Assembly: GCA_963797235.1 (NCBI GenBank)
Contig: CAWCOX010000004.1
Coordinates: 462,400-526,399 of the forward strand
DNA from: an uncultured delta proteobacterium
GTDB taxonomy: Bacteria; Desulfobacterota; Desulfobaccia; Desulfobaccales; 0-14-0-80-60-11
Reading direction: 5' to 3'
DNA length: 64,000 nt
Part shown: one piece after another, positions 3,241 to 59,512 of the stretch
Position numbering within the stretch: the stretch's first letter is position 1
Layout: the number at the start of each line of letters is the position of its first letter
Notes under the pieces: model-generated
The model's database searches: none
The model's input: only the letters and a program-made list of their open reading frames with translations
What the model was told of the DNA's origin: nothing
Position numbers and translations under genes: made by a program

Positions 3241-4041
3241 CTACTTGGCGGGGCGCGCCTTCTGCCTGGCAAAAAAGGCTTCCAGGGCCTGCATGTGCTC
3301 CGGACTATGGTGGCAGAGGGCCTGGAAGGCGGCGGAAATCTCCAGGGTTTCTTCCAGACTCTTGCCCTGGGCCAGACTGAACAGGCGCTTGGCCAGGCGC
3401 AGAATTCTGGCCGGCTGCCTGGCGATCTCGGCCGCCATTTCCAGGGACCGTTCCAGGAGCCGCTCGTGCGGCACCACTTCGCTCACCAGGCCGATCCGCA
3501 GGGCCTCGGCCGCGTCGATGACCCGACAGGTGAACGCCAGCTCCAGGGCCTTGGCGTAGCCGATCACCCGGGGCAGGAAATAGGCCCCGCCATCGCCGGG
3601 GATCAGACCCACGGAGGCGAAGGTCTCGCCGAAGCGGGCCTTATCGCTGGCGAGGCGAATATCGCACATGCAGGTCAAATCGCAGCCCGCCCCGATGGCC
3701 GGGCCGTTAACCGCGGCGATGGTGGGCACATCCAGCCTCTGAAACGCCAGAGGAATCTGCTGGATGCCCTGGCGGTAATTATTGCGGATCTGGTCCGGGT
3801 CGCCCGCGAACATCCCCTGCTTGTTATACATGTCCTTGACGTTGCCGCCGGCCGAAAAGGCGCTGCCCGCGCCGGTGAGGATCATGACGCTCAGGGCCTC
3901 GTCAGCCTGCACCCGGAGCAACGCGTCCAGGATCTCCTCGATCATGGCCGGCTCCGTAATGGTATTGCGCACCTCCGGCCGGTTCAGGGTGAGGACGGCG
4001 ATGGTTCCCCGTTGCTCGAAGCTGATTTCCCGATAGGTCAT
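3241..4041 (-). CDS. Enoyl-CoA hydratase/isomerase (crotonase) family protein
   Basis: 266-aa ORF with a typical crotonase N-terminus (..GTIAVLTLNRPEVRNT..) and oxyanion-hole region (..GAGSAFSAGGNVKD.., ..AAVNGPAIGAGCDL..). Confidence 0.85.
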   Translation of the reverse strand: MTYREISFEQRGTIAVLTLNRPEVRNTITEPAMIEEILDALLRVQADEALSVMILTGAGSAFSAGGNVKDMYNKQGMFAGDPDQIRNNYRQGIQQIPLAFQRLDVPTIAAVNGPAIGAGCDLTCMCDIRLASDKARFGETFASVGLIPGDGGAYFLPRVIGYAKALELAFTCRVIDAAEALRIGLVSEVVPHERLLERSLEMAAEIARQPARILRLAKRLFSLAQGKSLEETLEISAAFQALCHHSPEHMQALEAFFARQKARPAK

Positions 4042-8348: not shown

Positions 8349-10985
8349 TCATCCCTCCCCGTGTAAAATAAGCCCGGACCAAAAGTAGGGATGGGGCTCT
8401 TTGGCCCGCACTGCCTGCCGGGCGACCTTTAATGCCTCAATCTTGGGTTTCCCCTCCTTCAAGGCTTTATAAAACGCACTATAGAACTTCATGGACTCGT
8501 CTACCGGGATATTCCACAGGGACACCATGACGCTGCGGGCCCCCGCCTGCTGGAAGGCCCGGGCGAAGTTGAGCACCCCCTCCCCCTGCATCACCTGGCC
8601 TACCCCGGTCATGCAGGCGGCGAGGGTCACCAATTCGGCGTCCAACTTGAGCTGTAGCACCTTGCTGAAGGATAGAAAACCATCGTCCGGGGATTTATTC
8701 TCCACCTGGGTCAGTACCAGGGTGGGCTCTTGCACCCCGGCAAGCTTGTCCGCCAAAAACCCGTGAGTGCCGAAGAAGAGATAGCGATACTGCCCTAGGT
8801 TTTCATGGCGCACTCTGGTTTCCGTAGCGTAGACGTCCAGGAGCACCTGTGGCGGTTGGGGCTTTTCCTGGAAGAGGGCCGCCAATTCCAGCACGGTCTG
8901 CCGGGTCTCCGGCAGCGGCGGAAACTCCAGCCGGCCCCACCCCCGGTCGGTGGCCGCCATGGTCATAGCCTTCTCCGGCCCCGCATGCTTGAGTTCCCCC
9001 GCCTTCTCCGTGCCTGCCTTATAGGCCAGATAACGGCTGCTATCCTTGGTGTAGATGCAATCCCCCAGGGCAAAGAGGGCTTGAGCCGCGTGGGACGCTC
9101 CCAGGTGACGGTTCAGGGCCAGGATGGCGGCGGATTGAGAATAGGTTACCGGCCACTGGTCTCCCACCAAAGTGCACTTACCCCAATCCGGCCCCGCCTT
9201 CACCACCAAGGCCTCGAAGGGAAAGGCCCCCAGGGCGCCATCCGGCACGATGATCAGCCGGGTGCCGGGATTCACCCCGGACAGCGCTGGGGCCAGAAGA
9301 TCTTGATATAAGGAGGCCGCGTCGCTCACGCCAAAGCGTGACAAATCCTCCCGCCTCAAGACGCTCTTGCGAAAGGGCGCCAGCATGGCCCCCAGGCGCC
9401 TCTCCAGGGCTTCCTGCCCCAGGGCCAGGCGGAAGATCTGGGTCTTGCCACCGGGCTCCACCCGGAAGATGTAGCTCTCCTTCTCCCCCAGGGCATACTC
9501 TATCAGTACTTCCCCCGGCTTCAGGGGCAGCTCCTGGGCCTTATAGGGCTGGGGATACGCCATGGCGGCGTAACGGGGTTCTCGCCGACGCAGATCTGTC
9601 ACAAACCCTTCTCGTTCTTTTTGCAGGGCTTCAATTTTCCTCAGGAATTCCTGCACGGGCTGCTCTTTTCCTTCCCTCTTCCTCCCACGTTCTTGCATCC
9701 GTGCCAGCCTTTGTTCTTCTAGCTCCTGCAGGTTTTCCCGGAGACTCTTTTCTTTGGCTGCCAAGTCCGGGGGCAACTGCGGGGCTACCCGGGCCGCTCC
9801 GGCGGCCAGGGCCTCCATCAAGGACCGGGCCTTGATGGCCTCGGCAAAATAGAAGGCCGCGGCCGCGGGGTCCTGTCCATAAGTTTGCAAGCCCGGAGGG
9901 GCAGGTTCGCCTTTTAGGGCCATCTCCCCCAAAACCTCCGTCATCTCCCGGTAGGCCCGAAAATAGCCGCCCAGGAGGCCGGACTCGAAGAAACTCGTGC
10001 GTTCCCCCGAAGTTCGAGACCGCAGCCATTCGATATTCTTAATGGCCTCCAGGAAGGCGGCAAACGCCTCGGGCCGGTTTCCTAACCCTTTGAGAGCCAC
10101 CCCCTTTTGCGTGTAATACTGCGCCTGGTATTGGGCCCGGTTCCAAGGCTTGGGAGTAAGTTTAGAAGTCAAGAGGCTCAGTGCTGAATCGTACTTGCCG
10201 GTAGCCAAGTAGAGTTCCACCATCCCCATGTCGCCTTGCTTACCCGGGGCTCGGCGGAAAGTAGATTCCGCCTGGCTGTAATCCTTCTTGGCCAGATAGA
10301 GAAATCCCAGGTTTCTGAGACTCACCGTGGTCCAGAAGTTTTCCGGTCCCAACGTCTTCTCCCTGATCTCGGCGGCCCGCCGGGCCAGGGGCAAGGCCTG
10401 GTCATAGGACCCCATCTGGGTATAAAGGGTCACCAGGTTGTTCAGGGCAGCTGCGGTCTGCGGGCCTTCCGGCCCCGAGACCTTCTCGCTGATCTGCAAA
10501 GCTCGCTGGCTCAGGGCCAGGGCCTTGCCATGCGCCCCCATCTGCCCATAAATAGAGGCCAGGACCATCAGGCTTTGGGCGGTCCGAGGGTGTTCCGGCC
10601 CCAAGGCCTTCTCGCTGCGCTGCAGGGCCTGCTGGGCCAGGGGCAGGGCCTGGTCGAAGGAGCCGAGCTGAGAATATAACCAGGCCAGACGGGCCATGCT
10701 GGCGATGGTGAGGGGATGGTTCGGCCCCAGAGCCGTCTCGCTGAGCTTCAAGGCCTCCTGGAACGGGCGGAGGGCGCGTAAGAACATACTACTGTCCACA
10801 TAATTATTGCCCTCTTTAAGCAGTTCCTTGACCTTGGCCACTTCCGGCTTCTGGCCGGCGACCGGCGTCTCTTCATCCGCGGCGGGCTGAGGAGCTGCCT
10901 GAGAGCCGATTTTCTTGGCATAGCCGGAAGTCCCCGGCAAACCGAGGAACATGAGGCAAACGCAAATGGAGATAAGCCGGCGCAT
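8349..10985 (-). CDS. Secreted TPR-repeat / CHAT-domain (caspase-like) protein
   Basis: 878 aa. N-terminal signal peptide (MRRLISICVCLMFLGLPGTSG). About 5 TPR units (..ALGPNHPLT.. repeated). C-terminal CHAT region with a His/Cys dyad context (..FFGTHGF.., ..LAACMTG..). GGGAGA RBS. Confidence 0.85.
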   Translation of the reverse strand: MRRLISICVCLMFLGLPGTSGYAKKIGSQAAPQPAADEETPVAGQKPEVAKVKELLKEGNNYVDSSMFLRALRPFQEALKLSETALGPNHPLTIASMARLAWLYSQLGSFDQALPLAQQALQRSEKALGPEHPRTAQSLMVLASIYGQMGAHGKALALSQRALQISEKVSGPEGPQTAAALNNLVTLYTQMGSYDQALPLARRAAEIREKTLGPENFWTTVSLRNLGFLYLAKKDYSQAESTFRRAPGKQGDMGMVELYLATGKYDSALSLLTSKLTPKPWNRAQYQAQYYTQKGVALKGLGNRPEAFAAFLEAIKNIEWLRSRTSGERTSFFESGLLGGYFRAYREMTEVLGEMALKGEPAPPGLQTYGQDPAAAAFYFAEAIKARSLMEALAAGAARVAPQLPPDLAAKEKSLRENLQELEEQRLARMQERGRKREGKEQPVQEFLRKIEALQKEREGFVTDLRRREPRYAAMAYPQPYKAQELPLKPGEVLIEYALGEKESYIFRVEPGGKTQIFRLALGQEALERRLGAMLAPFRKSVLRREDLSRFGVSDAASLYQDLLAPALSGVNPGTRLIIVPDGALGAFPFEALVVKAGPDWGKCTLVGDQWPVTYSQSAAILALNRHLGASHAAQALFALGDCIYTKDSSRYLAYKAGTEKAGELKHAGPEKAMTMAATDRGWGRLEFPPLPETRQTVLELAALFQEKPQPPQVLLDVYATETRVRHENLGQYRYLFFGTHGFLADKLAGVQEPTLVLTQVENKSPDDGFLSFSKVLQLKLDAELVTLAACMTGVGQVMQGEGVLNFARAFQQAGARSVMVSLWNIPVDESMKFYSAFYKALKEGKPKIEALKVARQAVRAKEPHPYFWSGLILHGEG

Positions 10986-11763: not shown

Positions 11764-13653
11764 TCAGGAATGCTCCTCGGCTTGCTTTAGACCCTTCACC
11801 TCCAGGACTTCCACCGGTTCCCGGCGGCCCTTGACCCGTACTTGCTTCGCCCCGCCCGTCACCACCCACGGCCCCGCCGCCTTGATCGTATCCGCGCTGG
11901 CCACAATGGTCCAACCTAACTCTTTGGTGAGGCTCTCCAGCCGCGACGCCGTGTTAACCGTATCCCCGATGGCGGTGAATTCGAAACGTTTGGGCGAGCC
12001 GACATTGCCCACTACCACCTCGCCCGTATGGAGTCCGATGCCGATATGGAAATCCTGCCAATCCCGGTCGGGAAAACGCCGGGCTATCCAAGCCTGGAAG
12101 TCCGAGGCCCTTTCGGCCAGAGCCAGGGCCGCGGCAATCGCCCGCCGGGCGTGATCGGGGTGGGGAGCCGGCGAACCAAACACCGCCATAATAGCATCGC
12201 CGATAAACTTGTCCACCGTGCCGCCCTGCTCCAGGATCGGCTCACAGGCCCGGCTGAAGTAATTATTTAGCAGCTCCACCACTTCCTGGGGGGCCAGTGA
12301 TTCCGACATGGGGGTGAAATTTCGGATGTCGGAAAACAGGACCGTCACCGTCACCGCCTCCCCTCCCAGATCGGGCTGCTTGCCGGTAGCCAGAAGCTTC
12401 TCCACCACCTCATCGGAGACGTAGCGCCCAAAGATCTGCCGGAGTCGGGTTCGCTCCCGTTCTTCCCCCGTGAGCCTCAGCCCCAGGACCCCCAGATAGC
12501 TTGCCAGAAGGCCTAGTTGAGGAATGGCCACGGGCATCAGCCAGTCGCGGCGAAACCACAGGTAGGCGAAAACCGCCACCATAACTGCCAGCAGACCCAG
12601 AGCCGCCAATCCCTGTCGAGGAGAAAGTTTGAAGAACACCGCGGTTCCTACGATCAGCACCATTAACAGGTAAATCAGGCGCCTGAGGGCAGAAACCGGC
12701 CGGGGAAACCGTCCCGTCAGGAGGGTCTCCACGATGTTGGCGTGGACTTCCGGGCCGCTCATAAAGCGGGCCGGAAAATTCATAAACCCGCGGCTATACG
12801 GGGTCTGATGAATGTCTTGAACGCCTGTCGGCTCATAGGCAATAATGACGACTTTATCCTTGAGGCCCTGGATTTGGGGATCAGATTCGGCCCCGGGATT
12901 GAGCAAACGCCGGAAAGGGACGCGAGGGACAGTGCCGGGGGGGCCGCTAAACCGGATGAGGGAAAGAGGAGGAAAGAGGCGAGCGCGGTCCCCGGGTGCC
13001 GCCCGCTCCGCCAGGAGAGCGGCAAAAGTGCCCCAGCTCTCGCCTTCATTCGTAGGGATGGCAGGCAGAAATCGACGGATTACCCCATCAGGATCTTGGA
13101 AAAAATTGACTAACCCCACGTCCTCCAGTTTCCCCGGCAATGAACCCCAGTAGTCGGGAAGAGGCAGGAGGATCTTCGCCTTGCCCTGCGTTTCGGCGAT
13201 CTTTTCTGCCGCCAGGATTGTCTTGCCGGCGGCCAGTTGTTCCCTGAAAGCCAGGTCGTAGGTGCGGCTCTGGCCGCTTTCCGTCAATTTCAGCCTTTTC
13301 AGCCACGATTCCGCGCTGACCGAAAAGAGAAAGTCCAGGCCGATGACCTTGGCCCCGGCCTGTCGCAAAACCGCAAGCGCTCGGGCAAAGTGGGGGCTCC
13401 AGAACACCAGGGGCTCGTCCTGGTGCTCCAGCCGCGTCTGGTCATCAATAGCTACGATAACGACATGCTGGGGCTGGTACTGTAGGCCCGCCACCTGGTG
13501 CCAGACATCGTAATACCAATCTTCAGCGGAGTTAAACCACCCCATCCGCTGTGTCACTTCCAAAGCTCCGCCGATAAAGATAATTAGAAGCACAACGCAG
13601 AGGAATTTTCTATGCATTGATACCGTCAATAAGGGTCCTAAATTTGTCCCCAT
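11764..13653 (-). CDS. CHASE2-sensor class III adenylate cyclase
   Basis: 629 aa. N-terminal TM, a periplasmic CHASE2-like region, 3 TM segments, then a cyclase domain (..VTVLFSDIRNFTPMSE.., ..VDKFIGDAIMAVFG.., ..FTAIGDTVNTASRLES..). The Lys/Asp specificity pair suggests ATP as substrate. An alternative start is at 13617. Confidence 0.85.
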   Translation of the reverse strand: MGTNLGPLLTVSMHRKFLCVVLLIIFIGGALEVTQRMGWFNSAEDWYYDVWHQVAGLQYQPQHVVIVAIDDQTRLEHQDEPLVFWSPHFARALAVLRQAGAKVIGLDFLFSVSAESWLKRLKLTESGQSRTYDLAFREQLAAGKTILAAEKIAETQGKAKILLPLPDYWGSLPGKLEDVGLVNFFQDPDGVIRRFLPAIPTNEGESWGTFAALLAERAAPGDRARLFPPLSLIRFSGPPGTVPRVPFRRLLNPGAESDPQIQGLKDKVVIIAYEPTGVQDIHQTPYSRGFMNFPARFMSGPEVHANIVETLLTGRFPRPVSALRRLIYLLMVLIVGTAVFFKLSPRQGLAALGLLAVMVAVFAYLWFRRDWLMPVAIPQLGLLASYLGVLGLRLTGEERERTRLRQIFGRYVSDEVVEKLLATGKQPDLGGEAVTVTVLFSDIRNFTPMSESLAPQEVVELLNNYFSRACEPILEQGGTVDKFIGDAIMAVFGSPAPHPDHARRAIAAALALAERASDFQAWIARRFPDRDWQDFHIGIGLHTGEVVVGNVGSPKRFEFTAIGDTVNTASRLESLTKELGWTIVASADTIKAAGPWVVTGGAKQVRVKGRREPVEVLEVKGLKQAEEHS

Positions 13654-14471: not shown

Positions 14472-14540
14472 GATTAGCCCATGTGAAACTAATAACAATG
14501 ACTTTATATTGTTGGCAGTTGCAAATATTAATGCTTTTCC

Positions 14541-14641
14541 AGAAAAGCCAAACCCGTCGCGAGGCGAGGGCGGAAAGCCACGGGTCTCATGGATGGAGAC
14601 AGCCGGGTCGCCTGGAAGCATAACCCGGGATCCATTTTTTA
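14541..14641 (+). promoter_or_regulatory. c-di-GMP-I (GEMM-I)-like riboswitch with intrinsic terminator
   Basis: RNA reads GCCAAACC-CGUC-GCGA-GGCG-AGGGCGGAAAGCC-ACGGGUCUC..GAGAC-AGCCGGGUCGCC, followed by hairpin CCGGGU..ACCCGG plus U6. It has the same blocks as the copies at 57.4 and 57.6 kb. It also resembles the Vc2 aptamer as I recall it (CAAACC, GNRA hairpin, GGGACGCAAAGCC, AGCGGGGUUACC). Confidence 0.7.
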
Positions 14642-14836
14642 CTTCCGGTCGCATCACGGAGCGACAGAAAAGGCGTCTTCGGCGTCAACCCCGCCGCCTT
14701 AGTTTTAGCAGGCGGAGTCCAGGTAGCATCCGACGTCGAGGCGGCACCCGTACCCATACCGCCCAGCGCCCTCCTCCTGGGTTCGGGCCTGCTGGGCCTG
14801 GTGGGGCTGGGCTGGAGGCGTAAGAAAAGCCAATAA
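14624..14836 (+). pseudogene. PEP-CTERM protein remnant (C-terminal sorting signal only)
   Basis: The open frame has no start codon and ends ..AAPVPIPPSALLLGSGLLGLVGLGWRRKKSQ*. The tail is ~80% identical in nucleotides to that of the gene at 55498-56193. It lies directly after the riboswitch terminator. Confidence 0.7.
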
Positions 14837-14864: not shown

Positions 14865-14893
14865 GGCAGGGCCAGAAATGGCCCTGCCTTTTT
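14865..14893 (+). terminator. Rho-independent terminator
   Basis: GGCAGGGCC-AGAAAT-GGCCCTGCC followed by TTTTT. Confidence 0.75.
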
Positions 14894-23602: not shown

Positions 23603-24783
23603 TCATTCTTCGACATAATGTAAAAAGTGCTCCGATGTGCCCAAAAATTCCGGCTCATAAGGGACCACGGTCTTGGGCTGGAACCAGGTCTGGGCAATAA
23701 AGGTCGGCACCACGGCGGAGCCGATGACCACCGTCACCAGGACGGAATATTGGGACTGGCTGATAATGCCGCGGGTCAGCCCGTAAAGAGCCGAGATGCT
23801 GCCGAAAGTGAGGCCGGTGGCCATGAGCAGGGTGGTGTAATTACTTTCCCTGATGCGGCATCTTAAAGGCCCGGCATAGCGGCCAGACCCCGATGATTTT
23901 GGCGGCGATCTTAACCCCCAAGAGGATACGCGATCAGCACGATTCCCGTGTACAAAGCCGGCAGGGAGATCAAGGCGCCCGCCTTAATAAAGAAAAACGG
24001 GGTCAACAAGGTGAAGGTAATGGTCCGCATGCGCCGCATCAGGACCTTGTCCCGCACGAACACGCCGGCGACCACCAGCCCGAAGAGATAGGCCGGCAAG
24101 ACCGCCTCGCTGTTGGCCGTGACCGCCAGGGCGCCCAGAAAACAGAGCACCAAAAAGACGAATTTGACTTCCGGCTCGCTGACCCGGCCGCCCCATTTGG
24201 AGAACATCCAGCGGCTGACCCGCGGCAACAGCCACAGGGCAATGCCGGTAACCACGACAAACACCAGCATCCAACGGTTAAAATTGGCAAACAGCACCCC
24301 CAAGGCCAGCACCGTGCCCAGGTCGGTGACGAAACAGGCGGCCAGGATGAGCTTGCCGATGTCGGTCTCATTCAGGCCGGTCTCCACCATGACGGCATAG
24401 ACCACGGCCACCGAGGTGGTGGACAGGGCGATGCCGGCAATCTCGGCGGCTTGCAGGTCCCAGCCGGTGACGTAATAGGTGAAGGCCATGGCCCCCAGGA
24501 AAGGAAATAAGAAGGAGATGAACCCGATGACCAGGCTGGGCTTGAGATGCTTCTTGAAGGAGGCGGGATCGATTTCGGCCCCGGCCAGGAAGGTCAGCAT
24601 CATGGAGCCGAAGGCGGCCAGGACGTCGATCCAGGGAGCGGAATGGAATCCCAGAAAGTTTCCTGCCAGTACCCCCAGGAAGATTTCCACCAGGGCCACC
24701 GAGATGCCGGTGCGGATGGAAATGAGGCTGGCCGCCAGCGCTACGCCCAGCCAACTGGCCGCAGTAAACCAGACCTGTTCCAC
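23603..24783 (-). CDS. Cation:proton antiporter (CPA2 / Kef-type), frame-disrupted twice
   Basis: The 290-aa ORF (GTG 24783) has a Na_H_exchanger-type TM pattern. The sequence continues as LGVKIAAKIIGVWP.. and then ..NYTTLLMATGLTFGSIS.. in two other frames. The shifts are at a G5 run (~23913) and near 23835. Confidence 0.75.
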
Positions 24784-25046: not shown

Positions 25047-26342
25047 TTAGGGTGATACCGCTGACGTGGAGGCGAACCCGGCGCGTAACAGTGAATCCCG
25101 GCTGACCATGCCTTGATAAATCCCCTCCGCATCGATAACCGGCAAACGCTTGATCGCCCGCTCCAACATCAGTTGCAGGGCTTCATCTATCGGGGCGTCT
25201 TCCTGAACCGTCACGATGTGGGTGTTCATGATCTCACCGGCAGTCTTCAGTTCCAACTGCCGCTGGAGATCCTGGTGCCGGCGCCCCCGCTCGGTAAAGG
25301 GAATTTTGCTCACAAAATAATCCCAGATACCCGGATGGCGCTCGGAAAAAGCGACCAGGAGGTCCCGATCCGAGATCAACCCCAGGAAACGTCCTGCCTG
25401 GTCCACCACGCCAACCCGTTGCAGGTCATTGCGGTCAATGAGACGAATCACTTCCTCGACAGGAGTGTCGGGAAGCACTGTCGGAGTGTCTCGGCGCATG
25501 ATGTCGGCAACGGAGCGCAAATTTTCCACCCTGATTTCCTGCGCTTGAAAGGCTTTCCAGTCCGGGGATTCCCGCATACTGGTGCGAAACACGTCCACCC
25601 GCGAGAGGATGCCGGCCAGTCTTCCGGCGGCATCGACCACCGGGAGGCGCTTCACCTTTTTTTCAAGCATTAATTGAACCGCCTCCGTTACCGGCTTATC
25701 CTGCTCTATCGTCACTGCCGGCCGCGTCATGACTTCTCTGGCCCTCCTCGGTGCGAGCGCCTCCAGGACCGCGCTCACTTTTTGGCGATCCGATTCCGCC
25801 AGCAAACCGATCCTCATGGGCATTCCGGCCTTATAGATTAAATCCCCCTGGGCGATGACTCCGACCGGCCGGTTCTCTCCATCCACCACGGGCAGGCCGG
25901 TAAAAGTGGAAGAGAGCAGCAGGCGGGCCACTTCGGCCAGCGAGTCGTCCAGGCCGACCTTTTTCGGAGCCGGAGTCATGATGTCTCGCACCCTGGTCTG
26001 TCTGGGGATGAGAATGCCCCGGGTCCGATGGGAAACGACGCTCAAATCCTGCACCGCCACGATACCGTCGGTGACCATCTCCGCGGCCTTCGCCAAGATC
26101 CGCTCAGACTCGGAAGCCGGCACGATAATCGTAATCCGCACCGGCATGTTGTAGGAGAGGACCTCAAGCCTGCCGGTGGCCAGCTCCCCACTTTCATAAG
26201 AGCCCTCTATCCCCCTGGTCACCAGACAACGCGCCGCGATCTTCAAGTCGTGGACAAATTGGACGACGGCAGCATAAAGGGGCTGCCCCTGCCACCGCGC
26301 TTCCTCACTGCTAAAGATCTCAATCTTTTTATACTGCTGCAT
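25047..26342 (-). CDS. DUF190 (CrcB-associated, PII-like) domain fused to four CBS domains
   Basis: The N-terminus MQQYKKIEIFSSEEARWQGQPLYAAVVQFV.. is DUF190-like. It is followed by 4 CBS modules (..IMTPAPKKV.., ..VMTRPAVTI.., ..IMRRDTPTV.., ..IMNTHIVTV..). AAGGTGAGG RBS. It lies 14 nt after crcB. Confidence 0.7.
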   Translation of the reverse strand: MQQYKKIEIFSSEEARWQGQPLYAAVVQFVHDLKIAARCLVTRGIEGSYESGELATGRLEVLSYNMPVRITIIVPASESERILAKAAEMVTDGIVAVQDLSVVSHRTRGILIPRQTRVRDIMTPAPKKVGLDDSLAEVARLLLSSTFTGLPVVDGENRPVGVIAQGDLIYKAGMPMRIGLLAESDRQKVSAVLEALAPRRAREVMTRPAVTIEQDKPVTEAVQLMLEKKVKRLPVVDAAGRLAGILSRVDVFRTSMRESPDWKAFQAQEIRVENLRSVADIMRRDTPTVLPDTPVEEVIRLIDRNDLQRVGVVDQAGRFLGLISDRDLLVAFSERHPGIWDYFVSKIPFTERGRRHQDLQRQLELKTAGEIMNTHIVTVQEDAPIDEALQLMLERAIKRLPVIDAEGIYQGMVSRDSLLRAGFASTSAVSP

Positions 26343-26355
26343 AATTAGCCTCACC

Positions 26356-53918: not shown

Positions 53919-54326
53919 TTATCCGGCCCCATAAACCTTCTTGGGATCGAAGACCGGCGTACCCACCACCTCCCAGCCTTCTCCCCGGCGGCGGCGGTAA
54001 AAACAGCTCTTGTAGCCGGTATGGCAGGCCGCGCCGCCCACCTGCTCCACCTTTAAAAGCACCGTATCATTATCGCAATCCAGGTAAATCTCTTGAATAC
54101 GCTGCACGTGCCCGGAGGTGCCGCCCTTGTGCCACAGCGTCTGGCGGGTGCGGCTGAAATAATGGGCCTCCCCGGTCTTCAGGGTCGCCTCCCAGGCCGC
54201 CTCGTTCATGAAGGCCAGCATCAGCACCTCACCCGTGGCCGCGTCCTGGACAATGGCCGGCAGCAGGCCCCCCAGCTTGGCGAAATCGGGTCTCTCTGAA
54301 TCTTGCATATTTTGCATATTTTTCAT
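53919..54326 (-). CDS. hisI: Phosphoribosyl-AMP cyclohydrolase
   Basis: ..[21 protein letters not shown].., ..[18 protein letters not shown].., ..[22 protein letters not shown]... Confidence 0.9.
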
Positions 54327-54406
54327 ATCAGGAAAAATTAACCTTTTTGGCTTGAATCTGCAAGGTTGAATGCTGATTTTTGCAGAGAGAAGTCCTAACC
54401 CACTTA

Positions 54407-54441
54407 CCGAAGGCGGGAGGCGCTCGCTTTCCGCCCTACGA
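54407..54441. repeat. GC-rich REP-like hairpin (reverse-complement copy) flanked by a ~28-bp direct duplication
   Basis: Reverse complement of the element at 167-204. It is flanked by TTGAATGCTGATTTTTGCAGAGAGAAGTC (54366-54394) and CTGAAGCTGATTTTTCCAGAGAGGTGTC (54442-54469). Confidence 0.7.
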
Positions 54442-54464
54442 CTGAAGCTGATTTTTCCAGAGAG

Positions 54465-54848
54465 GTGTCTACCACGATGTCCAAAGTCATCTCATATCGC
54501 GCCCTGGCCCGGCAGCAGCAGCTCAACTACCTGAAGCAAAAAGATCGGGAGTATCGCGAGCGGGAAGATTTCCTGGGCCGAACGCAAAAGCTCCTGTTCC
54601 GGTTGGAGGCCCAGATGCGCCAGGCCGAGATGCAGCAACTGGAAGTCTTTCGGGAGCTGGCGGCCTACTTCAAGATTCCTCTGAACTTCCCCGACCTGGG
54701 AGACCGGGTGGGGCTGCAGCGCTGGTTCGCCACCGATCCCTTTCTGCAGATTCTGCAGGCCTTCTTTGCCGGGCGCCTCGCGGTTGAGGAGTGCCACCAG
54801 AAAATCATGGAACTGCAGGGGAACCCTGGTCCGGCCCGGGAAGATTAA
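54465..54848 (+). CDS. Hypothetical protein (coiled-coil-rich)
   Basis: 127-aa ORF with native-like composition. I recognise no family. Confidence 0.4.
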
Positions 54849-54872
54849 GCGCAGCGAGGGTTCGCCGGCCTA

Positions 54873-55345
54873 CTGCTTGGAGGCGCAGGTTTGGCAATTT
54901 TTGGGTCCCGGTTTTGAGCCGGCGGCTAAAAAGGCAATGCCAGCTTGAACTTAGGGCAAGAAAAATTGTGCATAAAGCAACTAGCTGAATATTGCAAGAA
55001 TTTTCAGGTGAGTCGGCCAGTTTGGCGCGATTTGTACGGTGAAGATAGGACACAATCGGGGCAGGCTGTGCCGGCATCTGAAAAAATTCCGCATTTGGGT
55101 CCGCATAAGTTCCTTATTTTGCTAAGTTTAGTCCGCTGAGCGGCCGCTGACTTAGCGGTCCGACACCGGAGAAGGGCCGCTGATGTACCGCAATTGTGCC
55201 GCCTGGCGGCCGGGAGGTTCGGGGGTAAAGCGGTTAAGTTACACATGGAGATAGGGTAAAGTCAGCGGAGAAAAATTTCCAGAACAGCCGAGAGAGTTGA
55301 CCCGATTGAAAGTTTGAGGTCAAGGAGATAGCTATTTTTCTTAGA
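54873..55345 (-). repeat. Dispersed ~0.5-kb non-coding repeat, copy 2 (inverted relative to copy 1)
   Basis: The reverse complement aligns block-wise with 520-1066 and has the same three 11-bp-phased GCGG(C/T)(A/C) boxes. Confidence 0.8.
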
Positions 55346-55395
55346 AGATTGGTCTGACGTAGCCCCAGGTTGATAAGAAGCATTAAATGACCAAA

Positions 55396-55421
55396 GGCAG
55401 GGTCTCTCTCGAGACCCTGCC
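55396..55421. terminator. Hairpin terminator downstream of the PEP-CTERM gene
   Basis: GGCAGGGTCTC-TCTC-GAGACCCTGCC. The T-rich tract is on the + side (TCTTTTATT), with only a weak U tract on the - side. Confidence 0.5.
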
Positions 55422-55497
55422 TCTTTTATTGACTTCCTGCCTGGCTCGAACTCACTCCGGTCAGACTCCCGAGATCAGATCAAGGGCAGTTGAGGGT

Positions 55498-56193
55498 TTA
55501 GCTCCGTTTCCGCCAGCCCAAGCCGACCAGGCCCAGCAGGCCGGAGCCCAGCAGCAAGGCGCTGGGGGGGATGGGAACGTAGACACCGTCTCCAGGGCAT
55601 GTTCCGAAATAAAATGTTGCGGATTCAATACCCGTACCGCTGTTAACTCCTGGGATAGATAAAACGAAACTAGCAGTTTGATTAAGGAACGGGTTGTGCG
55701 GTCCGTTGCCGGCAATCGACGCGTTCGCATTGCTGTAAGTGCCGCCGGTATCAGCCGGACCGATAAGAGTGTCCTTCGGGCCTGCGCCGCCGGTCCCCAG
55801 ATCGTTGAGCAGAAAGCTTAAGGAGCCAGTTTGGGACAGCACCCATCCAGTTGGGACGGTTGAGCCAGGGCTAACGGTCCCACCCGAGGTTATAGAAATA
55901 TTTTGTGAAGACGAGCTTGTTTCTGAAATTGAGCCTGTTTGCGTGAAGCTGGTTAACACGAAAGCAAGACCGCTCAAGCACTGGGCGACACTTTTCGGAT
56001 TAGCCAATTTGTTAGTTATTGTGATGTCGACCTCGTTAGAGAGTGTGGTGATTGTGACCAACGCATCTATCGGGTTGCCACCACTTTCAGTGATGCCGGG
56101 CCATGTCTCCCAAGTCATCATGCTCGCCGACGCCGGCGTGATCCAGCATGTCAAGGCCAAAATGACCAACATTACTAAAGTTTTTCGTTTCAT
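55498..56193 (-). CDS. PEP-CTERM sorting-domain secreted protein
   Basis: Signal peptide MKRKTLVMLVILALTCWITPASA. Ser/Thr/Gly-rich body. C-terminus ..VPIPPSALLLGSGLLGLVGLGWRKRS (P-x-P motif, TM segment, basic tail). GGAGGAGGA RBS. Confidence 0.85.
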   Translation of the reverse strand: MKRKTLVMLVILALTCWITPASASMMTWETWPGITESGGNPIDALVTITTLSNEVDITITNKLANPKSVAQCLSGLAFVLTSFTQTGSISETSSSSQNISITSGGTVSPGSTVPTGWVLSQTGSLSFLLNDLGTGGAGPKDTLIGPADTGGTYSNANASIAGNGPHNPFLNQTASFVLSIPGVNSGTGIESATFYFGTCPGDGVYVPIPPSALLLGSGLLGLVGLGWRKRS

Positions 56194-56371
56194 ACCTCTA
56201 TCCTCCTCCTGACGAATCAGCTCACCCCCCCTGCTTGATTGGCTTCAACCAGCCAATCTGCCGGGGTAACTTGTGACCGACGGTCTGCTCATCTCCTTAG
56301 GCCAAATCCTGGCTTGGGTTTCCCGGTTTTTTTGCAAAAAAAAACCGGCGCGCCCTAATGTATCCAGTAAA

Positions 56372-56452
56372 GCAACCAGGCTACCCCTTCCTAAGGACCT
56401 TAGTTTGCTGCCCCCGCCTCAAGACGGGTTCTGGTTCCCGCCCTCAGCCAAA
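56372..56452 (-). promoter_or_regulatory. Divergent GEMM-like aptamer variant in the leader of the distal PEP-CTERM gene
   Basis: RNA: GGAACCAGAACC-CGUC-UUGA-GGCG-GGGGCAGCAAAC-UAAGGUCCUUAGGAAGGGGU-AGCCUGGUUGC. It keeps the tetraloop hairpin, the UUAGGAAG block and closing AACCAG/CUGGUU pairing, but GGGACGGAAAGCC is replaced by GGGGCAGCAAAC. Confidence 0.4.
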
Positions 56453-56466
56453 ACCAAACCCCGGTT

Positions 56467-56505
56467 AAAAACAGACAGGGTTTCTGCGGAGAAGCCCTGT
56501 CTGTC
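56467..56505 (-). terminator. Rho-independent terminator of the proximal PEP-CTERM gene
   Basis: On the minus strand, GACAGACAGGG-CUUCUCCGCAGAAA-CCCUGUCUGU followed by U5. Confidence 0.8.
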
Positions 56506-56580
56506 TATCCAGATGATCCATTGTGGCCGACTACGGGCGACCACCTACTTTTGGTTGCCGCGGGCCTCGGAGGTTAGAGT

Positions 56581-57177
56581 TTAGCTCCGTTTCCGCCAGC
56601 CGATACCCACCAGGCCCAACAGGGCGGAGCCCAGCAGCAGGGCGCTGGGCGGGATGGGCACGGCGGAGGTTTCGACGTCGGATTGCAGGCTGATCGTCAA
56701 TCCAGTAGTGGTCCCGTGGAGCTGCGAGGTTACGTCCTGTGCAGTTCCGTTTTCCACGAGCGTACAATAATTCACGTTGCATTCGAAGTTCTGCAAGGCA
56801 GTAGAAAAGCCGGTGGCCTCATCAGAATAGAAGGTGAGAGTGAAATCTCTGACATTTTGGAATCCATCACCCAAACTAAAATAGGAACTCCCTATAGTCA
56901 GAGTCGCGAAATCACTAACGGGCCCGCCCACACACTCAAGCAATTCTACGCCAAACGTGCCAGCGCTGAGGCTGTCCTTAGCAATTGTGCCAGTTACCTT
57001 CGCATACTCAGCTGCGAGGCTAGTCTGGTAACCATAAATGGTTCCCGCGGTAGTCACCGTGGGGTTGCCATCGGTTAAGTCGCTTATGCTGATGAATGGG
57101 GTTGTGGTGGCCAACGCTTGCCCCGGGAGCCAGCAAACCAGGGCGGCCAATGCCATAATGAGAGCCATTTTCTTCAT
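56581..57177 (-). CDS. PEP-CTERM sorting-domain secreted protein
   Basis: Signal peptide MKKMALIMALAALVCWLPGQALA. C-terminus ..AVPIPPSALLLGSALLGLVGIGWRKRS. Confidence 0.85.
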   Translation of the reverse strand: MKKMALIMALAALVCWLPGQALATTTPFISISDLTDGNPTVTTAGTIYGYQTSLAAEYAKVTGTIAKDSLSAGTFGVELLECVGGPVSDFATLTIGSSYFSLGDGFQNVRDFTLTFYSDEATGFSTALQNFECNVNYCTLVENGTAQDVTSQLHGTTTGLTISLQSDVETSAVPIPPSALLLGSALLGLVGIGWRKRS

Positions 57178-57376
57178 TTGTTTCTCCTCATCTGCAGATG
57201 TGGTGGTGCAAAAAGAGATCCTTCATCCAGTCGACTGACGCAGCAATCACTCTAGCTTATTCTTTTTACACCTCCTTATTGACTTCCTTGTTCAGGTATT
57301 ATCTCCACCCCGTCGGGGGAACATTTAACGTGACTGCACCTTGCCAAGGCCTGCGGGCCTGCCGTCCAGGCCCCAA

Positions 57377-57470
57377 TAAAAAAGCCGCGTTACCCGTTTC
57401 AGGTAACCCGGCTGTCTCTTCCTAAGACCCGTGGCTTTCCGTCCCCGCCTCACGACGGGTTTGGCTTGCA
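57377..57470 (-). promoter_or_regulatory. c-di-GMP-I (GEMM-I)-like riboswitch A with terminator
   Basis: RNA: GCCAAACC-CGUC-GUGA-GGCG-GGGACGGAAAGCC-ACGGGUCU-UAGGAAG-AGAC-AGCCGGGUUACC-UGAAAC-GGGUAACGCGGC-U6. The terminator stem uses the aptamer 3' strand. Confidence 0.75.
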
Positions 57471-57590
57471 TGTAAACTAATTATGTAATATTTCTTGTCA
57501 AGTCACTTTCAGCTAAGTCAAGTCACTTTTAACTAATTTTTCCTGGCTTTTCGCTGGAGGCCTCCCCTGCATGACTGGATTGGCCCAAAT

Positions 57591-57682
57591 AAAAAAGCCG
57601 CGGTCGCCCTCTTCAGGCAACCCGGCTATCTCTTCCTAAGACCCGTGGCTTTCCGTCCCCGCCTCACGACGGGTTTGGCTTG
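57591..57682 (-). promoter_or_regulatory. c-di-GMP-I (GEMM-I)-like riboswitch B with its own terminator (tandem with A)
   Basis: The aptamer is identical to A except for one position. Its terminator is GCCGGGUUGCCUGAAGAGGGCGACCGCGGC-U6. A degenerate third copy lies at ~57697-57748. Confidence 0.75.
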
Positions 57683-57756
57683 TCTTCGTTAGTGGCGATC
57701 TCTTCCTTAGAGCCTTGCTCTGCCCTCATCGCCTCACGTCGGCATCATTTGTGTGT

Positions 57757-57785
57757 ATATTAATTATGAAACAACTGCTTGTCAA
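57757..57785 (-). promoter_or_regulatory. Sigma-70 promoter for the riboswitch/PEP-CTERM transcript
   Basis: On the minus strand, TTGACA (57785-57780), 17 nt, TAATAT (57762-57757). A ~60-bp tract of >85% AT lies immediately upstream (57810-57870). Confidence 0.65.
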
Positions 57786-58321
57786 GCTATTTTTAACTAA
57801 TTTCGAAAATATTTTCTTATATTAAAATAATTTATATTTATTATAAATTTAAAAAATATAAGTTATTTTGCAACCGATTCATCCAAGCTTTAAGCTTGAT
57901 GGATTATCAGCCGCTTTCCTCAATTTTTCTATAGGTAAAATTACCTATTCGGGACTAGGTATTTTTACTTAAAATACTAGCCGGACGTGGAACCCGGTTA
58001 TTGAGAGCGGCAGACTTGTTTTCGCCAGGGTCCTTCCCGGGTTCCCCTGCCCTAAGTATATGCAAAGGCCGGACCATAAGCTTAATTAATTATAAACAAC
58101 TAAAACCACAGGATAAATAGAAGAATCGTCCTGAAGCAATGGTTCAGATCTTGAAAAGAAAGGGGCAATCAATGTTCACCAAAAGAAACATAATGTTCTG
58201 GCTATTCACAAAGAAAGAATGAGGATGGCGATCGGCAGGACCCTGCGGCTTCCTTCTCCCCTGGGAGCCCGGCTGCCTGGGTTTTTCGGCAAATTTTGGC
58301 AAATAGGGAGAAGGGCAGGCT

Positions 58322-58440
58322 AAAAAAAGCTGGCCAGGAAGGGGGAGGACCCGGCCAGCTTACCCATCGGCAGGAGAAAGCTCTGAACTCACCGGAGGGG
58401 GCAAAAAGGTTATGGGTTCAGGTTCTTTCTCTTATACATT
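58322..58440 (-). ncRNA. Candidate sigma-54-dependent sRNA 1 (C-rich loops)
   Basis: Runs from the predicted TSS (~58440) to the terminator GCUGGCCGGG-UCCUCCCCCUUCC-UGGCCAGC-U7. The 5' stem is GAAAG..CUGAAC / GUUCAG..CUUUC with loop UUUUUGCCCCCUCC. The linker is UUUCUCCUG. Confidence 0.6.
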
Positions 58441-58450
58441 GTATTGTTTA

Positions 58451-58466
58451 TGCAGAAATCATGCCA
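58451..58466 (-). promoter_or_regulatory. Sigma-54 (-24/-12) promoter
   Basis: The minus strand reads TGGCATG-ATTT-CTGCAT, against the consensus TGGCACG-N4-TTGCW. Confidence 0.65.
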
Positions 58467-58668
58467 TGTAATACTAAACCAGGCATTACTTGGTAAATCA
58501 GTAGGTTAGGCTGCTAGCCAAATTTCTCGGGTCGGTTTTTGGTTCAATATTTTGGACGAATCGACCGGCCAAATCCTCCCAACCAAGCCCACCCCGGGGT
58601 TGGTCGGCCGCAAAAATTTTGACGCGGGGGGGGCAATTTTTCCCTGATATCGATCCGGTCACCAGGGC

Positions 58669-58783
58669 AAAAAAAAACTGGCCGGATGGGGGAGGAACCC
58701 GGCCAGTTCGGTGAAAGGAGAAAATGGTATATGAACTTTGATTAAGGGGGGGATGTGGGTACCTTAATGGGGTTCATATACGC
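58669..58783 (-). ncRNA. Candidate sigma-54-dependent sRNA 2 (paralogue of sRNA 1)
   Basis: Perfect 10-bp outer stem GUAUAUGAAC/GUUCAUAUAC and 7-bp inner stem AUUAAGG/CCUUAAU. Loop UACCCACAUCCCCC. Linker UUUUCUCCUUUC. Terminator ACUGGCCGGG-UUCCUCCCCCAUCC-GGCCAGU-U9. Confidence 0.6.
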
Positions 58784-58793
58784 CAATATTTAA

Positions 58794-58809
58794 TGCAGGT
58801 ATTGTGCCA
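58794..58809 (-). promoter_or_regulatory. Sigma-54 (-24/-12) promoter
   Basis: The minus strand reads TGGCACA-ATAC-CTGCAT. Confidence 0.65.
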
Positions 58810-59164
58810 AATACCGGCTTTGTTATTTTATATCATATTTCAATATGTTATCCCTTAGTCGCTCAAACCCCTCGGTTCAATAATTTATACCGAGGAAGGG
58901 TTTTTGTATATCATTATAGCCTCATCCATCTAATTTAATTTAACAATAGCGTTTTTAGGTCTAATTCAATTTTTTGTTCAAGCCGCGGCGCCGGCCGGGA
59001 ATCTAGCCAAAATTGTCTGGTGCTCTGGTCAGCTGGTCAGCAACCGCGGCCGGCTGCACCGACGCCTCCGGGGCGGAAGCGGGCGCCACTCCTGCGACTT
59101 TTTACGGGAAAGAGGCCGCTAAAACGATTATAATGACTTTATCAAACGAGAGGTCAGACTTTCC

Positions 59165-59512
59165 ATGTGTATCTTCTGCGGGGGGCAATGCGGCGGCGCC
59201 GGTGAATTTCTGATTTCCATCGGTTTGCCGTTTTTGGTGCTCTATTTTTTGAGGATAAAGCAGGCGCTGGTCAGGCTAGGAAATAGAATTGTGCGCCGGG
59301 GCCAAGCAATGCCGGCTGCACCGGCTAAATGTGAATGTTGTGGCCAGCCGCGGCAGGATTGTCAAGCGCCGCAAAGTCAATCCATCGATCTCAAAGACTT
59401 AGAGCTGCTTGAATTGAAATCTCAGCATAACGAGTCTACCGAAGTTTCCTTAGAGACAACTAGATTAAATAACCAATTAAAATTAGTAAAAAGAGAGAGT
59501 GTCCGGAGTTAA
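59165..59512 (+). CDS. Hypothetical Cys-rich single-TM protein
   Basis: 115 aa: MCIFCGGQCGG.., a TM segment (FLISIGLPFLVLYFL), then ..KCECCGQPRQDC... Low-GC region. It overlaps the next gene by 14 nt. Confidence 0.4.
   Translation: MCIFCGGQCGGAGEFLISIGLPFLVLYFLRIKQALVRLGNRIVRRGQAMPAAPAKCECCGQPRQDCQAPQSQSIDLKDLELLELKSQHNESTEVSLETTRLNNQLKLVKRESVRS

Follow-up and report, generated by a model that had tools for sequence, protein, structure and literature searches.

Tandem c-di-GMP-I riboswitches ahead of a gene for a putative PEP-CTERM-like surface protein in an uncultured delta proteobacterium

Background

Among riboswitches that occur in tandem, the c-di-GMP-I class is the commonest; one catalogue lists 347 doublets and 12 triplets of it (PMC9481103). 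A triple tandem of this class, Bc3-5 of Bacillus thuringiensis, has been validated, and tandem switches are described as digital in behaviour (PMC4759541). In Methylophaga nitratireducenticrescens GP59, c-di-GMP riboswitches lie upstream of PEP-CTERM/VPLPA-CTERM genes (PMC12530212). In-line probing has shown binding of c-di-GMP by those aptamers of Desulfobacca acetoxidans (Desulfobaccales) that have G at the key position, and they are predicted ON switches (PMC9481103). Here we analyse a locus of an uncultured delta proteobacterium within a stretch of 64 kb (64,000 nucleotides, the window in what follows), on the minus strand of which two riboswitches, B and then A, precede two genes. The sequence-only reading of this DNA had been aware of no characterised case of the layout or of the pairing with PEP-CTERM genes; the studies above are precedents (PMC9481103, PMC4759541, PMC12530212), the pairing recurs in other genomes, and the locus is genuine but unremarkable as an instance of an arrangement known to be common. 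All ten elements named in that reading are present, with positions that are exact or off by no more than a few bases.

The locus resembles the Bc3-5-type tandems in that it holds complete riboswitches from a single class, here two, of which either has a separate terminator and is a predicted ON switch. It departs from those tandems in that its copies arose by recent duplication of the entire promoter-aptamer-terminator module, with a promoter relic between them, a decayed aptamer at the 5' end and a copy number that differs between near-identical strains. D. acetoxidans likewise has several near-identical GEMM-I aptamers within a few kb (PMC9481103), which carry terminators, are predicted ON switches and show a correlation between c-di-GMP binding and G at the key position; those aptamers, however, form logic gates together with AdoCbl riboswitches, whereas the Rfam scan of the window found no AdoCbl element.

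Aptamer class and ligand

In the scan of the 64 kb, two aptamers exceed the gathering score of 59 of the Rfam model RF03167 (c-di-GMP-I-GGC):

57612-57688, minus strand: aptamer of riboswitch B, c-di-GMP-I class (RF03167, 68.5 bits, E 4e-14, cmscan)
57398-57474, minus strand: aptamer of riboswitch A, c-di-GMP-I class (RF03167, 62.2 bits, E 3e-12, cmscan)

Both reach the covariance-model threshold for the clan CL00126 (GEMM-I), and RF03167 is the top-scoring model for A, B and all relatives. Two weaker matches of the same clan, each reaching its own gathering score, were suppressed in the Rfam scan and are most likely those of RF01051 (gathering score 35). G20, A47 and C92 (Vc2 numbering), which we take from crystal structures to be the nucleotides that contact the ligand, correspond to model positions 10, 37 and 75 in the cmscan alignments and are located at 57679, 57652 and 57617 in B, and at 57465, 57438 and 57403 in A. 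The helices P1a (CCCGUC-GUGA-GGCGGG, with a GNRA tetraloop) and P1b (AGCCACGGGUC...GAYAGCCGGGUU) are both recovered in the minimum free energy fold of either aptamer alone; the P1 helix is weak in A and B, with non-canonical pairs flagged by cmscan. Compared with Vibrio cholerae Vc2 (RF01051, CL00126), the GNRA-capped P1a, the P1b helix, the CAAACC and GGGAC..AAAGCC blocks and G20/A47/C92 are alike, whereas P1b of A and B is short, lacking the long distal extension, C-G replaces G-C in the closing pairs, a subtype often seen among Desulfobacterota, and the best Rfam model is the GGC variant although its defining G47 is absent. On the whole, A and B are genuine GEMM-I (c-di-GMP-I) aptamers with a canonical pocket, as had been proposed from four hallmark blocks that are all literally present in both.

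The ligand of A and B is predicted to be c-di-GMP rather than 3'3'-cGAMP, because position 20, singled out beforehand as the place where G or A would tell the two apart, is G in both; the A that marks c-AMP-GMP aptamers (GEMM-Ib) at this position occurs in neither. Single changes are known to switch specificity on the GEMM-I scaffold, and some G20 aptamers are reportedly promiscuous, but G20 stands here alongside A47 and C92, and we regard it as highly unlikely that A and B sense 3'3'-cGAMP or another cyclic dinucleotide in place of c-di-GMP. The example of D. acetoxidans bears on both sides, for this member of the Desulfobaccales has a cGAMP-preferring variant, yet its aptamers with G at the key position strongly favour c-di-GMP (PMC9481103). 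The Rfam label raises the further question of an orphan c-di-GMP-I-GGC class with another, non-c-di-GMP ligand, for which the best match above the gathering score would speak. We take the name of this variant, from Weinberg et al. 2017, to mean that G replaces A47. The A47 position is the sole pocket difference between the consensus of RF03167 (GACGCGAAGCC) and that of RF01051 (GACGCAAAGCC), and exactly there A and B have A at model position 37 against the consensus G, a mismatch in cmscan. A scan of genome contigs with the aptamer core drew matches from many phyla; among the matches listed, A47 is found in all 127 same-core aptamers of other genomes, and the CC/GG closing pair is common to 54 of the 127. 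RF03167 outscores RF01051 for every CC/GG-closing aptamer with short P1b that was tested, though all have A47, and GC/GC-closing aptamers are assigned to RF01051 instead. The GGC label on A and B is misleading, because A and not G occupies position 47 in both, and it follows helix details rather than the pocket; a separate ligand class is thus hardly credible. Automated 'GGC variant' calls therefore need a check at position 47, since the model beats its parent for a whole subtype with the canonical pocket. As for a 'c-di-GMP-I-UAU' match in the related locus L002, it is not a real variant, a 4-nt deletion having removed C92.

Leader organization and predicted mechanism

The leader that carries B and A, together with the region upstream, consists of the following elements:

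57786-57880, minus strand: A+T-rich tract by composition, 86-91% A+T (the part 57786-57870 about 90%), upstream of promoter P1
57757-57785, minus strand: putative promoter P1 of sigma-70 type, TTGACA-17-TAATAT (promoter scan, 10/12 matches)
57590-57627, minus strand: intrinsic terminator of B, -25.1 kcal/mol, z -4.5, U6 after the hairpin
57474-57529, minus strand: degenerate copy of P1 ('P2'), two AAAGTGACTTGAC boxes followed by TTGACA-16-TAGTTT
57377-57413, minus strand: intrinsic terminator of A, -25.2 kcal/mol, z -5.0, U6 after the hairpin
57178-57376, minus strand: spacer of 199 nt before gene 1, Shine-Dalgarno GAGGAG, fold z only -1.8

A strong promoter behind a tract of more than 85% A+T had been noted here, in agreement with P1 and the tract. 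The hexamers and spacing of P1 are identical in L081, which comes from a more distant species, and the tract, possibly an UP-element-like region, is also conserved in L001, L003, L006 and L081. Downstream of P1, the claim of a tandem pair with separate terminators holds as well: two complete aptamer-terminator units, their starts 214 nt apart, lie in one predicted leader. The 5' arm of the B terminator, AGCCGGGUUGCC, is made of the P1b 3' strand of the aptamer and C92, and that of the A terminator, AGCCGGGUUACC, is the 3' strand of aptamer A; the aptamer and terminator folds are computed to be mutually exclusive in A and in B. Where the B terminator has a G-C pair, that of A has A-U, a compensatory difference made up of G to A on the 5' side and C to U on the 3' side of the hairpin. 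The shared strand, already noticed in the sequence-only reading, is what leads us to predict c-di-GMP-dependent antitermination, with A and B acting as ON switches.

Between B and A there is no ORF and no strong promoter, but the degenerate copy of P1 is present. Its AAAGTGACTTGAC box occurs twice and exactly, at 57529-57517 and 57509-57497, both boxes being tied to the P1 -35 region by one repeat family (D5), and its hexamers are TTGACA at 57501-57496 and TAGTTT at 57479-57474. Owing to this copy, some transcripts might see only A. The 199-nt spacer that follows A has no Rfam match. A possible leader ORF of 12 codons ahead of gene 1 (MKDLFLHHHICR) was considered and rejected, as it is not conserved in L006.

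Taken together, we consider it likely that a P1-driven leader with serial c-di-GMP ON riboswitches controls gene 1, which encodes a secreted surface protein. P1 would drive a leader of about 570 nt holding B and then A. At low c-di-GMP, the 3' strand of the aptamer would pair downstream to form the intrinsic terminator and transcription would stop; at high c-di-GMP, the bound aptamer would keep the strand, no terminator would form and RNA polymerase would continue. A transcript from P1 would have to get past both terminators, and for this reason the output would be steeper with c-di-GMP than that of a single switch, a 'pseudo-cooperative' design. In this way a biofilm second messenger would be linked to the supply of a matrix or surface protein without a protein regulator.

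Secreted proteins behind the leader

Two genes, each with a hairpin after it, are located downstream:

56581-57177, minus strand: gene 1, secreted protein of 198 aa with putative signal peptide MKKMALIMALAALVCWLPGQALA and a C-terminal VPIPPS-hydrophobic-RKRS tail
56465-56506, minus strand: strong terminator hairpin after gene 1 with U5, -28.1 kcal/mol, z -4.0
55498-56193, minus strand: gene 2, secreted beta-sandwich protein of 231 aa with putative signal peptide and a VPIPPS tail like that of gene 1
55395-55422, minus strand: hairpin after gene 2 with a weak U tract, -27.9 kcal/mol, z -6.1

The terminator after gene 1 had already been noted from the sequence, and the Rfam search of 54300-55500, beyond gene 2, gave no further module. 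The gene 1 family is rare (23 matches), and AlphaFold models the product of gene 1 as a beta-sandwich, with moderate confidence (pLDDT 68). The exact sequence of gene 1 is not on record; the related loci came via its homologues, which are named by NCBI as from Desulfobaccales MAGs, and with a protein named PEP-CTERM it shares the termini alone. For gene 2, the AlphaFold model (pLDDT 89.5) has a helix at either end (residues 2-17 and 210-230), with no significant fold match in the PDB. Its family is widespread, with over 450 full-length homologues (42-52% identity); many of these have a PF07589 match on record, and the consensus tail of the family is the canonical PEP-CTERM VPEPxSLxLLGxGLxGL...RR.

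Both proteins have a putative signal peptide (MKKMALIMALAALVCWLPGQALA in gene 1) and, at the extreme C-terminus, a tripartite VPIPPS-hydrophobic-RKR tail (as in VPIPPSALLLGSALLGLVGIGWRKRS*) of Pro-rich motif, hydrophobic helix and Arg/Lys cluster, which is the PEP-CTERM-type architecture. The earlier naming of both as PEP-CTERM proteins stands in this respect and in the homology of gene 2, but not by the profile models: TIGR02595 matches neither protein, PF07589 scores 12.5 against a cutoff of 20.7 and for gene 2 only, TIGR03370 (VPLPA-CTERM) gives 16.4 and 17.0 against 25.35, and the MYXO-CTERM model 16.7 against 20. The homologue P0009 passes TIGR02595 (17.2 against 16). The two proteins are PEP-CTERM-like by architecture only, plus full-length homology in the case of gene 2, and tails of the VPxPPS kind escape the current sorting-domain models.

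The search for an exosortase suggested by the sequence-only reading gave no Pfam match among the 32 window ORFs scanned. The locus resembles Methylophaga GP59 in that a c-di-GMP riboswitch goes with small secreted proteins with exosortase-type tails, several genes being clustered. However, GP59 belongs to a different phylum, has one switch per gene (PMC12530212) and carries its cluster among exopolysaccharide genes, whereas the neighbours in the window are housekeeping genes, with no EPS or exosortase genes. We infer co-transcription and sorting by an exosortase; gene 1 encodes a small beta-sandwich protein, secreted and with a VPIPPS-type PEP-CTERM-like signal, which an exosortase-type system would presumably receive for placement at the cell surface or in the matrix. 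The locus thereby offers a comparatively documented case of c-di-GMP acting, as predicted, on the mRNA of an exosortase-type surface protein in an uncultured lineage apparently related to Desulfobaccales.

Degenerate copies and alternative readings

Besides A and B, other aptamer-derived sequences are present; a repeat finder independently groups four copies, parts of A and B among them, at 56379-56427, 57410-57458, 57624-57672 and 57694-57742.

57694-57748, minus strand: pseudo-aptamer, aligning to the aptamers (76% identical in repeat family D1)
56367-56438, minus strand: variant aptamer C (RF03167, 27 bits against the gathering score of 59)
56336-56385, minus strand: terminator-like hairpin of variant C, using the 3' strand of C, with U9 at 56344-56336

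The pseudo-aptamer has neither the 3' strand nor the pocket residues of an aptamer and gives no Rfam match at E<=10. Its hairpin, in which GGCGAU (57733-57728) pairs with AUCGCC (57699-57694), persists across 7 versions, where 95% of cells are paired and L002 shows one compensatory change; the segment is an aptamer-derived refolded hairpin and no aptamer. In variant C the helices are retained, while the pocket is altered, with A47 changed to C and the context of G20 changed. The array of riboswitches described earlier is thus confirmed for A and B, which pass the model threshold, but comprises only these two, and the gating of gene 2 by a riboswitch is not borne out. Gene 2, with a strong terminator and a diverged, probably non-c-di-GMP-binding aptamer copy ahead of it, would be expressed by read-through at best.

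Different readings of this layout have to be weighed. The locus might be no true tandem but two independent promoter-riboswitch modules, with P2 driving most gene 1 transcription via A alone and B a duplication leftover yielding mostly short terminated transcripts. The region ahead of A does copy the P1 promoter region with its -35 box duplicated, the second module of L006/L007 and L081 retains the full A+T tract and a CATAATTAATAT -10 region, and module number and spacing differ among near-identical strains. In the window, however, the P2 -10 hexamer is decayed to TAGTTT (3/6) and the promoter scan did not report P2. If transcription began about 7 nt downstream, the start would correspond to aptamer position 18, at most 3 nt upstream of G20 of A, and would leave no 5' flank or P1 strand; moreover, the aptamer and terminator of B are intact in every strain but L002. 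We therefore judge independent modules unlikely, and prefer the serial arrangement read from P1. Variant C, for its part, could function as a riboswitch that recognises a new ligand and controls gene 2 separately. Against the intact homologous aptamers of L081 and L006, two compensatory changes plus two that are wobble-compatible maintain its P1b, its P1a is unchanged, its changes cluster at pocket positions, and its terminator-like hairpin with the U9 run lies on the shared 3' strand. Yet there is one unique sequence of C only, the window and L001 being nearly identical there, its score is far under the gathering score, its tetraloop has gone from GUGA to UUGA and does not fit GNRA any more, and it has lost the outer P1a pairs. 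In addition, its pocket sequence had zero matches in two JGI metagenome scans, the fold of the whole module (z -0.6) is no better than shuffles, and it follows directly after a strong terminator without a promoter, all of which makes such a switch very unlikely. Nor do we give more than a small chance to a broader reading, a modular fast-evolving site with a duplicating promoter/aptamer/terminator module, swappable surface-protein cassettes, and a repurposed pseudo-aptamer and variant C. The cassettes may then share the signal peptide and sorting tail only, the pseudo-aptamer hairpin may serve, for example, as a transcript stabiliser or as a folding helper for the downstream aptamer, and variant C may be a new-specificity switch gating the second cassette.

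Related loci and strain variation

The arrangement is also found in three strain-level relatives and in one separate species. Because the flanks of the relatives show 95-97% identity, the conservation of the leader weighs little as independent evidence. No riboswitch is found upstream of the gene 2 homologues of other organisms at L128, L130 and L131, which shows the association to be lineage-specific and no property of the gene 2 family. Overall, eight other lineages have c-di-GMP-I aptamers in front of PEP-CTERM-type genes, and at L043, L108 and L028 the genes behind the same aptamer type are bona fide PEP-CTERM or VPLPA-CTERM genes.

Strains differ in having two or three aptamers, in one terminator common to two aptamers and in decayed copies, and these differences can be taken as snapshots of the origin and decay of tandem riboswitches. 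The promoter-aptamer duplications are modular and the gene cassettes hypervariable, and a third riboswitch adjoins a gene remnant.

Tandem riboswitches ahead of gene 1

All elements listed by the sequence-only reading are present on the minus strand, as shown by an Rfam scan of the entire 64-kb window at gathering thresholds, a promoter scan, the ORFs and a repeat finder which, independently of Rfam, places four aptamer-derived copies of the region in one group. The leader is composed as follows.

57880-57786 (-), tract of 86-91% A+T upstream of the promoter-like site (composition)
57785-57757 (-), P1, promoter-like site TTGACA-17-TAATAT (promoter scan)
57748-57694 (-), degenerate segment that aligns to aptamers
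57688-57612 (-), riboswitch B aptamer (Rfam 68.5 bits, E 4e-14)
57679, 57652 and 57617 (-), G20, A47 and C92 of the B pocket, Vc2 numbering (cmscan alignment)
57474-57398 (-), riboswitch A aptamer (Rfam 62.2 bits, E 3e-12)
57465, 57438 and 57403 (-), G20, A47 and C92 of the A pocket (cmscan alignment)

A G+C-rich hairpin followed by U6 lies downstream of both B and A, and the interval between the two units contains the box AAAGTGACTTGAC in two copies. Downstream of the leader come genes 1 and 2 (ORFs of 198 aa and 231 aa), and between these genes lie a strong terminator (hairpin plus U5) and variant C, a diverged copy of the aptamer.

Both A and B score above the gathering threshold. For the choice between c-di-GMP and cGAMP, which had been left to position 20, both carry G20 and not the A20 of cGAMP-sensing variants, and their G20/A47/C92 constitute the canonical c-di-GMP pocket. 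The top Rfam model for both is RF03167, 'c-di-GMP-I-GGC', whose consensus (…GACGCGAAGCC…) differs from that of the parent RF01051 (…GACGCAAAGCC…) at a single pocket position; this position is A in both A and B, a mismatch in the cmscan alignment. The meaning of 'GGC' reportedly comes from Weinberg et al. 2017, and our reading also leans on the two Rfam consensus lines. Among the matches listed, we compared 127 same-core aptamers from other genomes; all 127 have A47, and 54 have C-G closing pairs like those of A and B. Panel aptamers with G-C closing pairs go to RF01051, while all those with C-G closing pairs and a short P1b go to RF03167 despite A47. In addition, two same-clan matches were suppressed at the gathering threshold, most simply the RF01051 matches on A and B. 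Because of the canonical pocket, the panel pattern and the suppressed matches, we reject membership of the GGC variant and, with A47 present, class both A and B as ordinary c-di-GMP-I aptamers.

Wherever C-G closing pairs occur together with a short P1b, RF03167 scores above RF01051, although all these aptamers have the canonical A47; this is seen on the window, L001-L007 (related loci), L028, L043, L076, L078, L081 (a separate GTDB species), L088, L091, L108 and L127. Automated annotation would thus mislabel this whole subtype as the orphan 'c-di-GMP-I-GGC' variant.

Predicted switching

When the aptamer is folded alone, P1a and P1b are recovered, and when the downstream sequence is included the terminator forms instead, with AGCCGGGUUGCC (B) or AGCCGGGUUACC (A) as its 5' arm, which consists of the P1b 3' strand plus C92 in both units (B -25.1 kcal/mol, z -4.5; A -25.2 kcal/mol, z -5.0). 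The two folds are mutually exclusive, therefore ligand binding should block termination, and each unit would act as an ON switch in which c-di-GMP prevents the terminator. The one G/A difference between the 5' arms of B and A is accompanied by a C/U difference in their 3' arms; terminator pairing has thus been maintained. A transcript from P1 would have to get past both terminators, and B and A in series would make a 'pseudo-cooperative' tandem with a sharper response, a design established as sharpening the response (PMC9481103) and validated in a triple c-di-GMP-I tandem (PMC4759541). In vitro, c-di-GMP binding has been observed for Desulfobacca acetoxidans (order Desulfobaccales) aptamers whose key position is G (PMC9481103). 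For the present tandem we infer ligand binding, P1 use and co-transcription.

The degenerate segment had been read as an aptamer-like member of the array, but it has no match in Rfam at E<=10, and three parts of the aptamer are missing from it: the CAAACC block, the A47 context and the entire 3' strand. It is a 5' hairpin derived from an aptamer, in which three coordinated changes give a new perfect 6-bp helix, GGCGAU (57733-57728) with AUCGCC (57699-57694). This helix is kept in seven versions from relatives, with 95% of cells paired versus 30-48% in slid controls, and L002 shows a compensatory G-C to U-A change (GUCGAU/AUCGAC). Such a pattern in seven related sequences is only suggestive of selection on a 5' hairpin as opposed to neutral decay.

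Variant C and gene 2

56438-56367 (-), variant C (27 bits versus the gathering threshold of 59)

L081 and L006 carry a second type of module whose intact aptamer is a homologue of variant C, and the homology extends to the terminator of that module and the downstream GCAAAAAA…CCGGGAAA sequence. Compared with these homologues, P1a is unchanged, and P1b still pairs after two compensatory and two wobble-compatible changes. Canonical c-di-GMP binding appears unlikely, because the pocket (C at position 47, G20 context altered), the outer P1a pairs (gone) and the tetraloop (UUGA) are changed. There is only one unique variant C sequence, and two metagenome scans for its pocket gave no matches. The promoter scan finds no promoter-like site before C, which directly follows the strong terminator of gene 1, so gene 2 would be transcribed only by read-through and its gating is therefore unproven. 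Of the proposed riboswitch gating of both genes, the part concerning gene 1, with A and B ahead of it, is supported as a prediction, while gating of gene 2 by the weakly scoring, pocket-altered C finds no support.

The two proteins

Both products begin with a hydrophobic signal sequence and terminate in VPIPPSALLLGS(A/G)LLGLVG(I/L)GWRKRS*. In the searches of the two proteins, TIGR02595 gives no match, and PF07589 (12.5 vs 20.7), TIGR03370 for VPLPA-CTERM (16.4 and 17.0 vs 25.35) and the MYXO-CTERM model (16.7 vs 20) stay below their cutoffs; the alignments of the weak full-length matches are all confined to the C-terminal end of PEP-CTERM family models. The gene 1 family is rare (23 matches), one member being named PEP-CTERM by NCBI and passing TIGR02595. 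The gene 2 family has more than 450 proteins with 42-52% identity across the full length, many with PF07589 on record, and a consensus tail VPEPxSLxLLGxGLxGL…RR. The tails falling below the curated models and the family tail being VPEP, membership rests on architecture and, for gene 2, homology rather than on sorting-domain HMMs; both proteins are thus best described from sequence as PEP-CTERM-like with a variant VPxPPS motif, and the earlier plain 'PEP-CTERM' label survives in this qualified form. For gene 2, AlphaFold confidently predicts a beta-sandwich flanked by two terminal helices (pLDDT 89.5), without significant structural neighbours in the PDB. The exosortase that was to be located is not found among the scanned window ORFs.

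Among near-identical strains, the mature domains are unrelated, and only the signal peptide (~70 nt) and the C-terminal tail (~85 nt) are conserved at the variable locus, pointing to cassette-like hypervariability of the regulated surface proteins. The cassettes compared, in strains with 95-97% identical flanks, are the following.

56581-57177 and 55498-56193 (-), window, genes 1 and 2
L003:5001-6333, strain-level relative
L006:5001-6553, strain-level relative

Modular origin

Related loci, found via homologues of gene 1, carry the same modules in differing numbers. L001 has two aptamers; L003 and L004 have three, two of which lie 7 nt apart and have a single terminator in common.

L003:4619-4694 and 4702-4778, close-set pair of intact c-di-GMP-I aptamers
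L004:3621-3696 and 3704-3780, the same pair

These pairs are dual aptamers on a single platform, whereas in the window each aptamer has a separate terminator; the pseudo-aptamer-plus-aptamer units probably derive from the dual-aptamer layout. In L006 and L007 there are two aptamers at a distance of 540 nt, and an A+T tract, a promoter and a pseudo-aptamer accompany each of them; L081 has two full modules ahead of a gene 2-like gene. In the window, A is preceded by a copy of the P1 region in which the -35 box is duplicated (repeat family D5). Its promoter-like site P2 (TTGACA-16-TAGTTT), from which a start would fall at most 3 nt upstream of G20 of A, may be a weak second promoter or only a remnant. 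In one strain, riboswitch B (L002:3084-3159) has lost C92 through a 4-nt deletion (GGGTTGCCTGAAG to GGGTGTGAAG); Rfam labels this version c-di-GMP-I-UAU, below threshold, and either the copy is decaying or the assembly is wrong here. Since the flanking genes are 95-97% identical among strain-level relatives, conservation of their leaders does not argue independently for function.

The sequence-only reading set the novelty of the pairing and layout too high. No tandem class is known in greater numbers than tandem c-di-GMP-I riboswitches, of which 347 doublets and 12 triplets have been counted (PMC9481103), and Methylophaga GP59 is listed with c-di-GMP riboswitches ahead of PEP-CTERM and VPLPA-CTERM genes (PMC12530212). 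Among the matches listed, same-subtype aptamers lie ahead of proteins that carry such tails in L028, L043, L076, L078, L081, L088, L108 and L127, of which L043 and L108 pass TIGR02595 and L028 passes TIGR03370; no riboswitch is found upstream of gene 2 homologues in three other organisms. The locus adds one sound case to an established riboswitch/surface-protein kind, and what appears new in its sequence is the pseudo-aptamer hairpin, variant C and the cassette-like variability.

Other elements in the window

A third aptamer lies in a 2.2-kb ORF-free gap together with a remnant of the same tail as in genes 1 and 2.

14537-14615 (+), third c-di-GMP-I aptamer (RF01051, 53 bits)
14750-14830 (+), tail remnant …APVPIPPSALLLGSGLLGLVGLGWRRKKSQ*, in frame, ~135 nt after the aptamer
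14866-14890, hairpin after the remnant

The remnant frame has no start codon and no signal peptide, and the aptamer looks like a riboswitch left beside a deleted gene of this tail family. Adjoining the gap is a CHASE2-sensor adenylate/guanylate cyclase gene (11764-13653, -), and a CHAT-TPR protein gene lies at 8349-10985. A fluoride riboswitch (24918-24841, -; 41.5 bits vs 34) follows a CBS/DUF190 gene (25047-26354) and precedes one for a Na_H_Exchanger-family membrane protein (23911-24783). Finally, the 1.4 kb at 57800-59165, without an ORF of at least 70 aa and conserved in relatives, holds two terminator-like hairpins 348 nt apart (58318-58358 and 58666-58706), both reading GCTGGCCGGG…CCTGGCCAGC and then a T run on the minus strand; this stretch may contain small transcription units.
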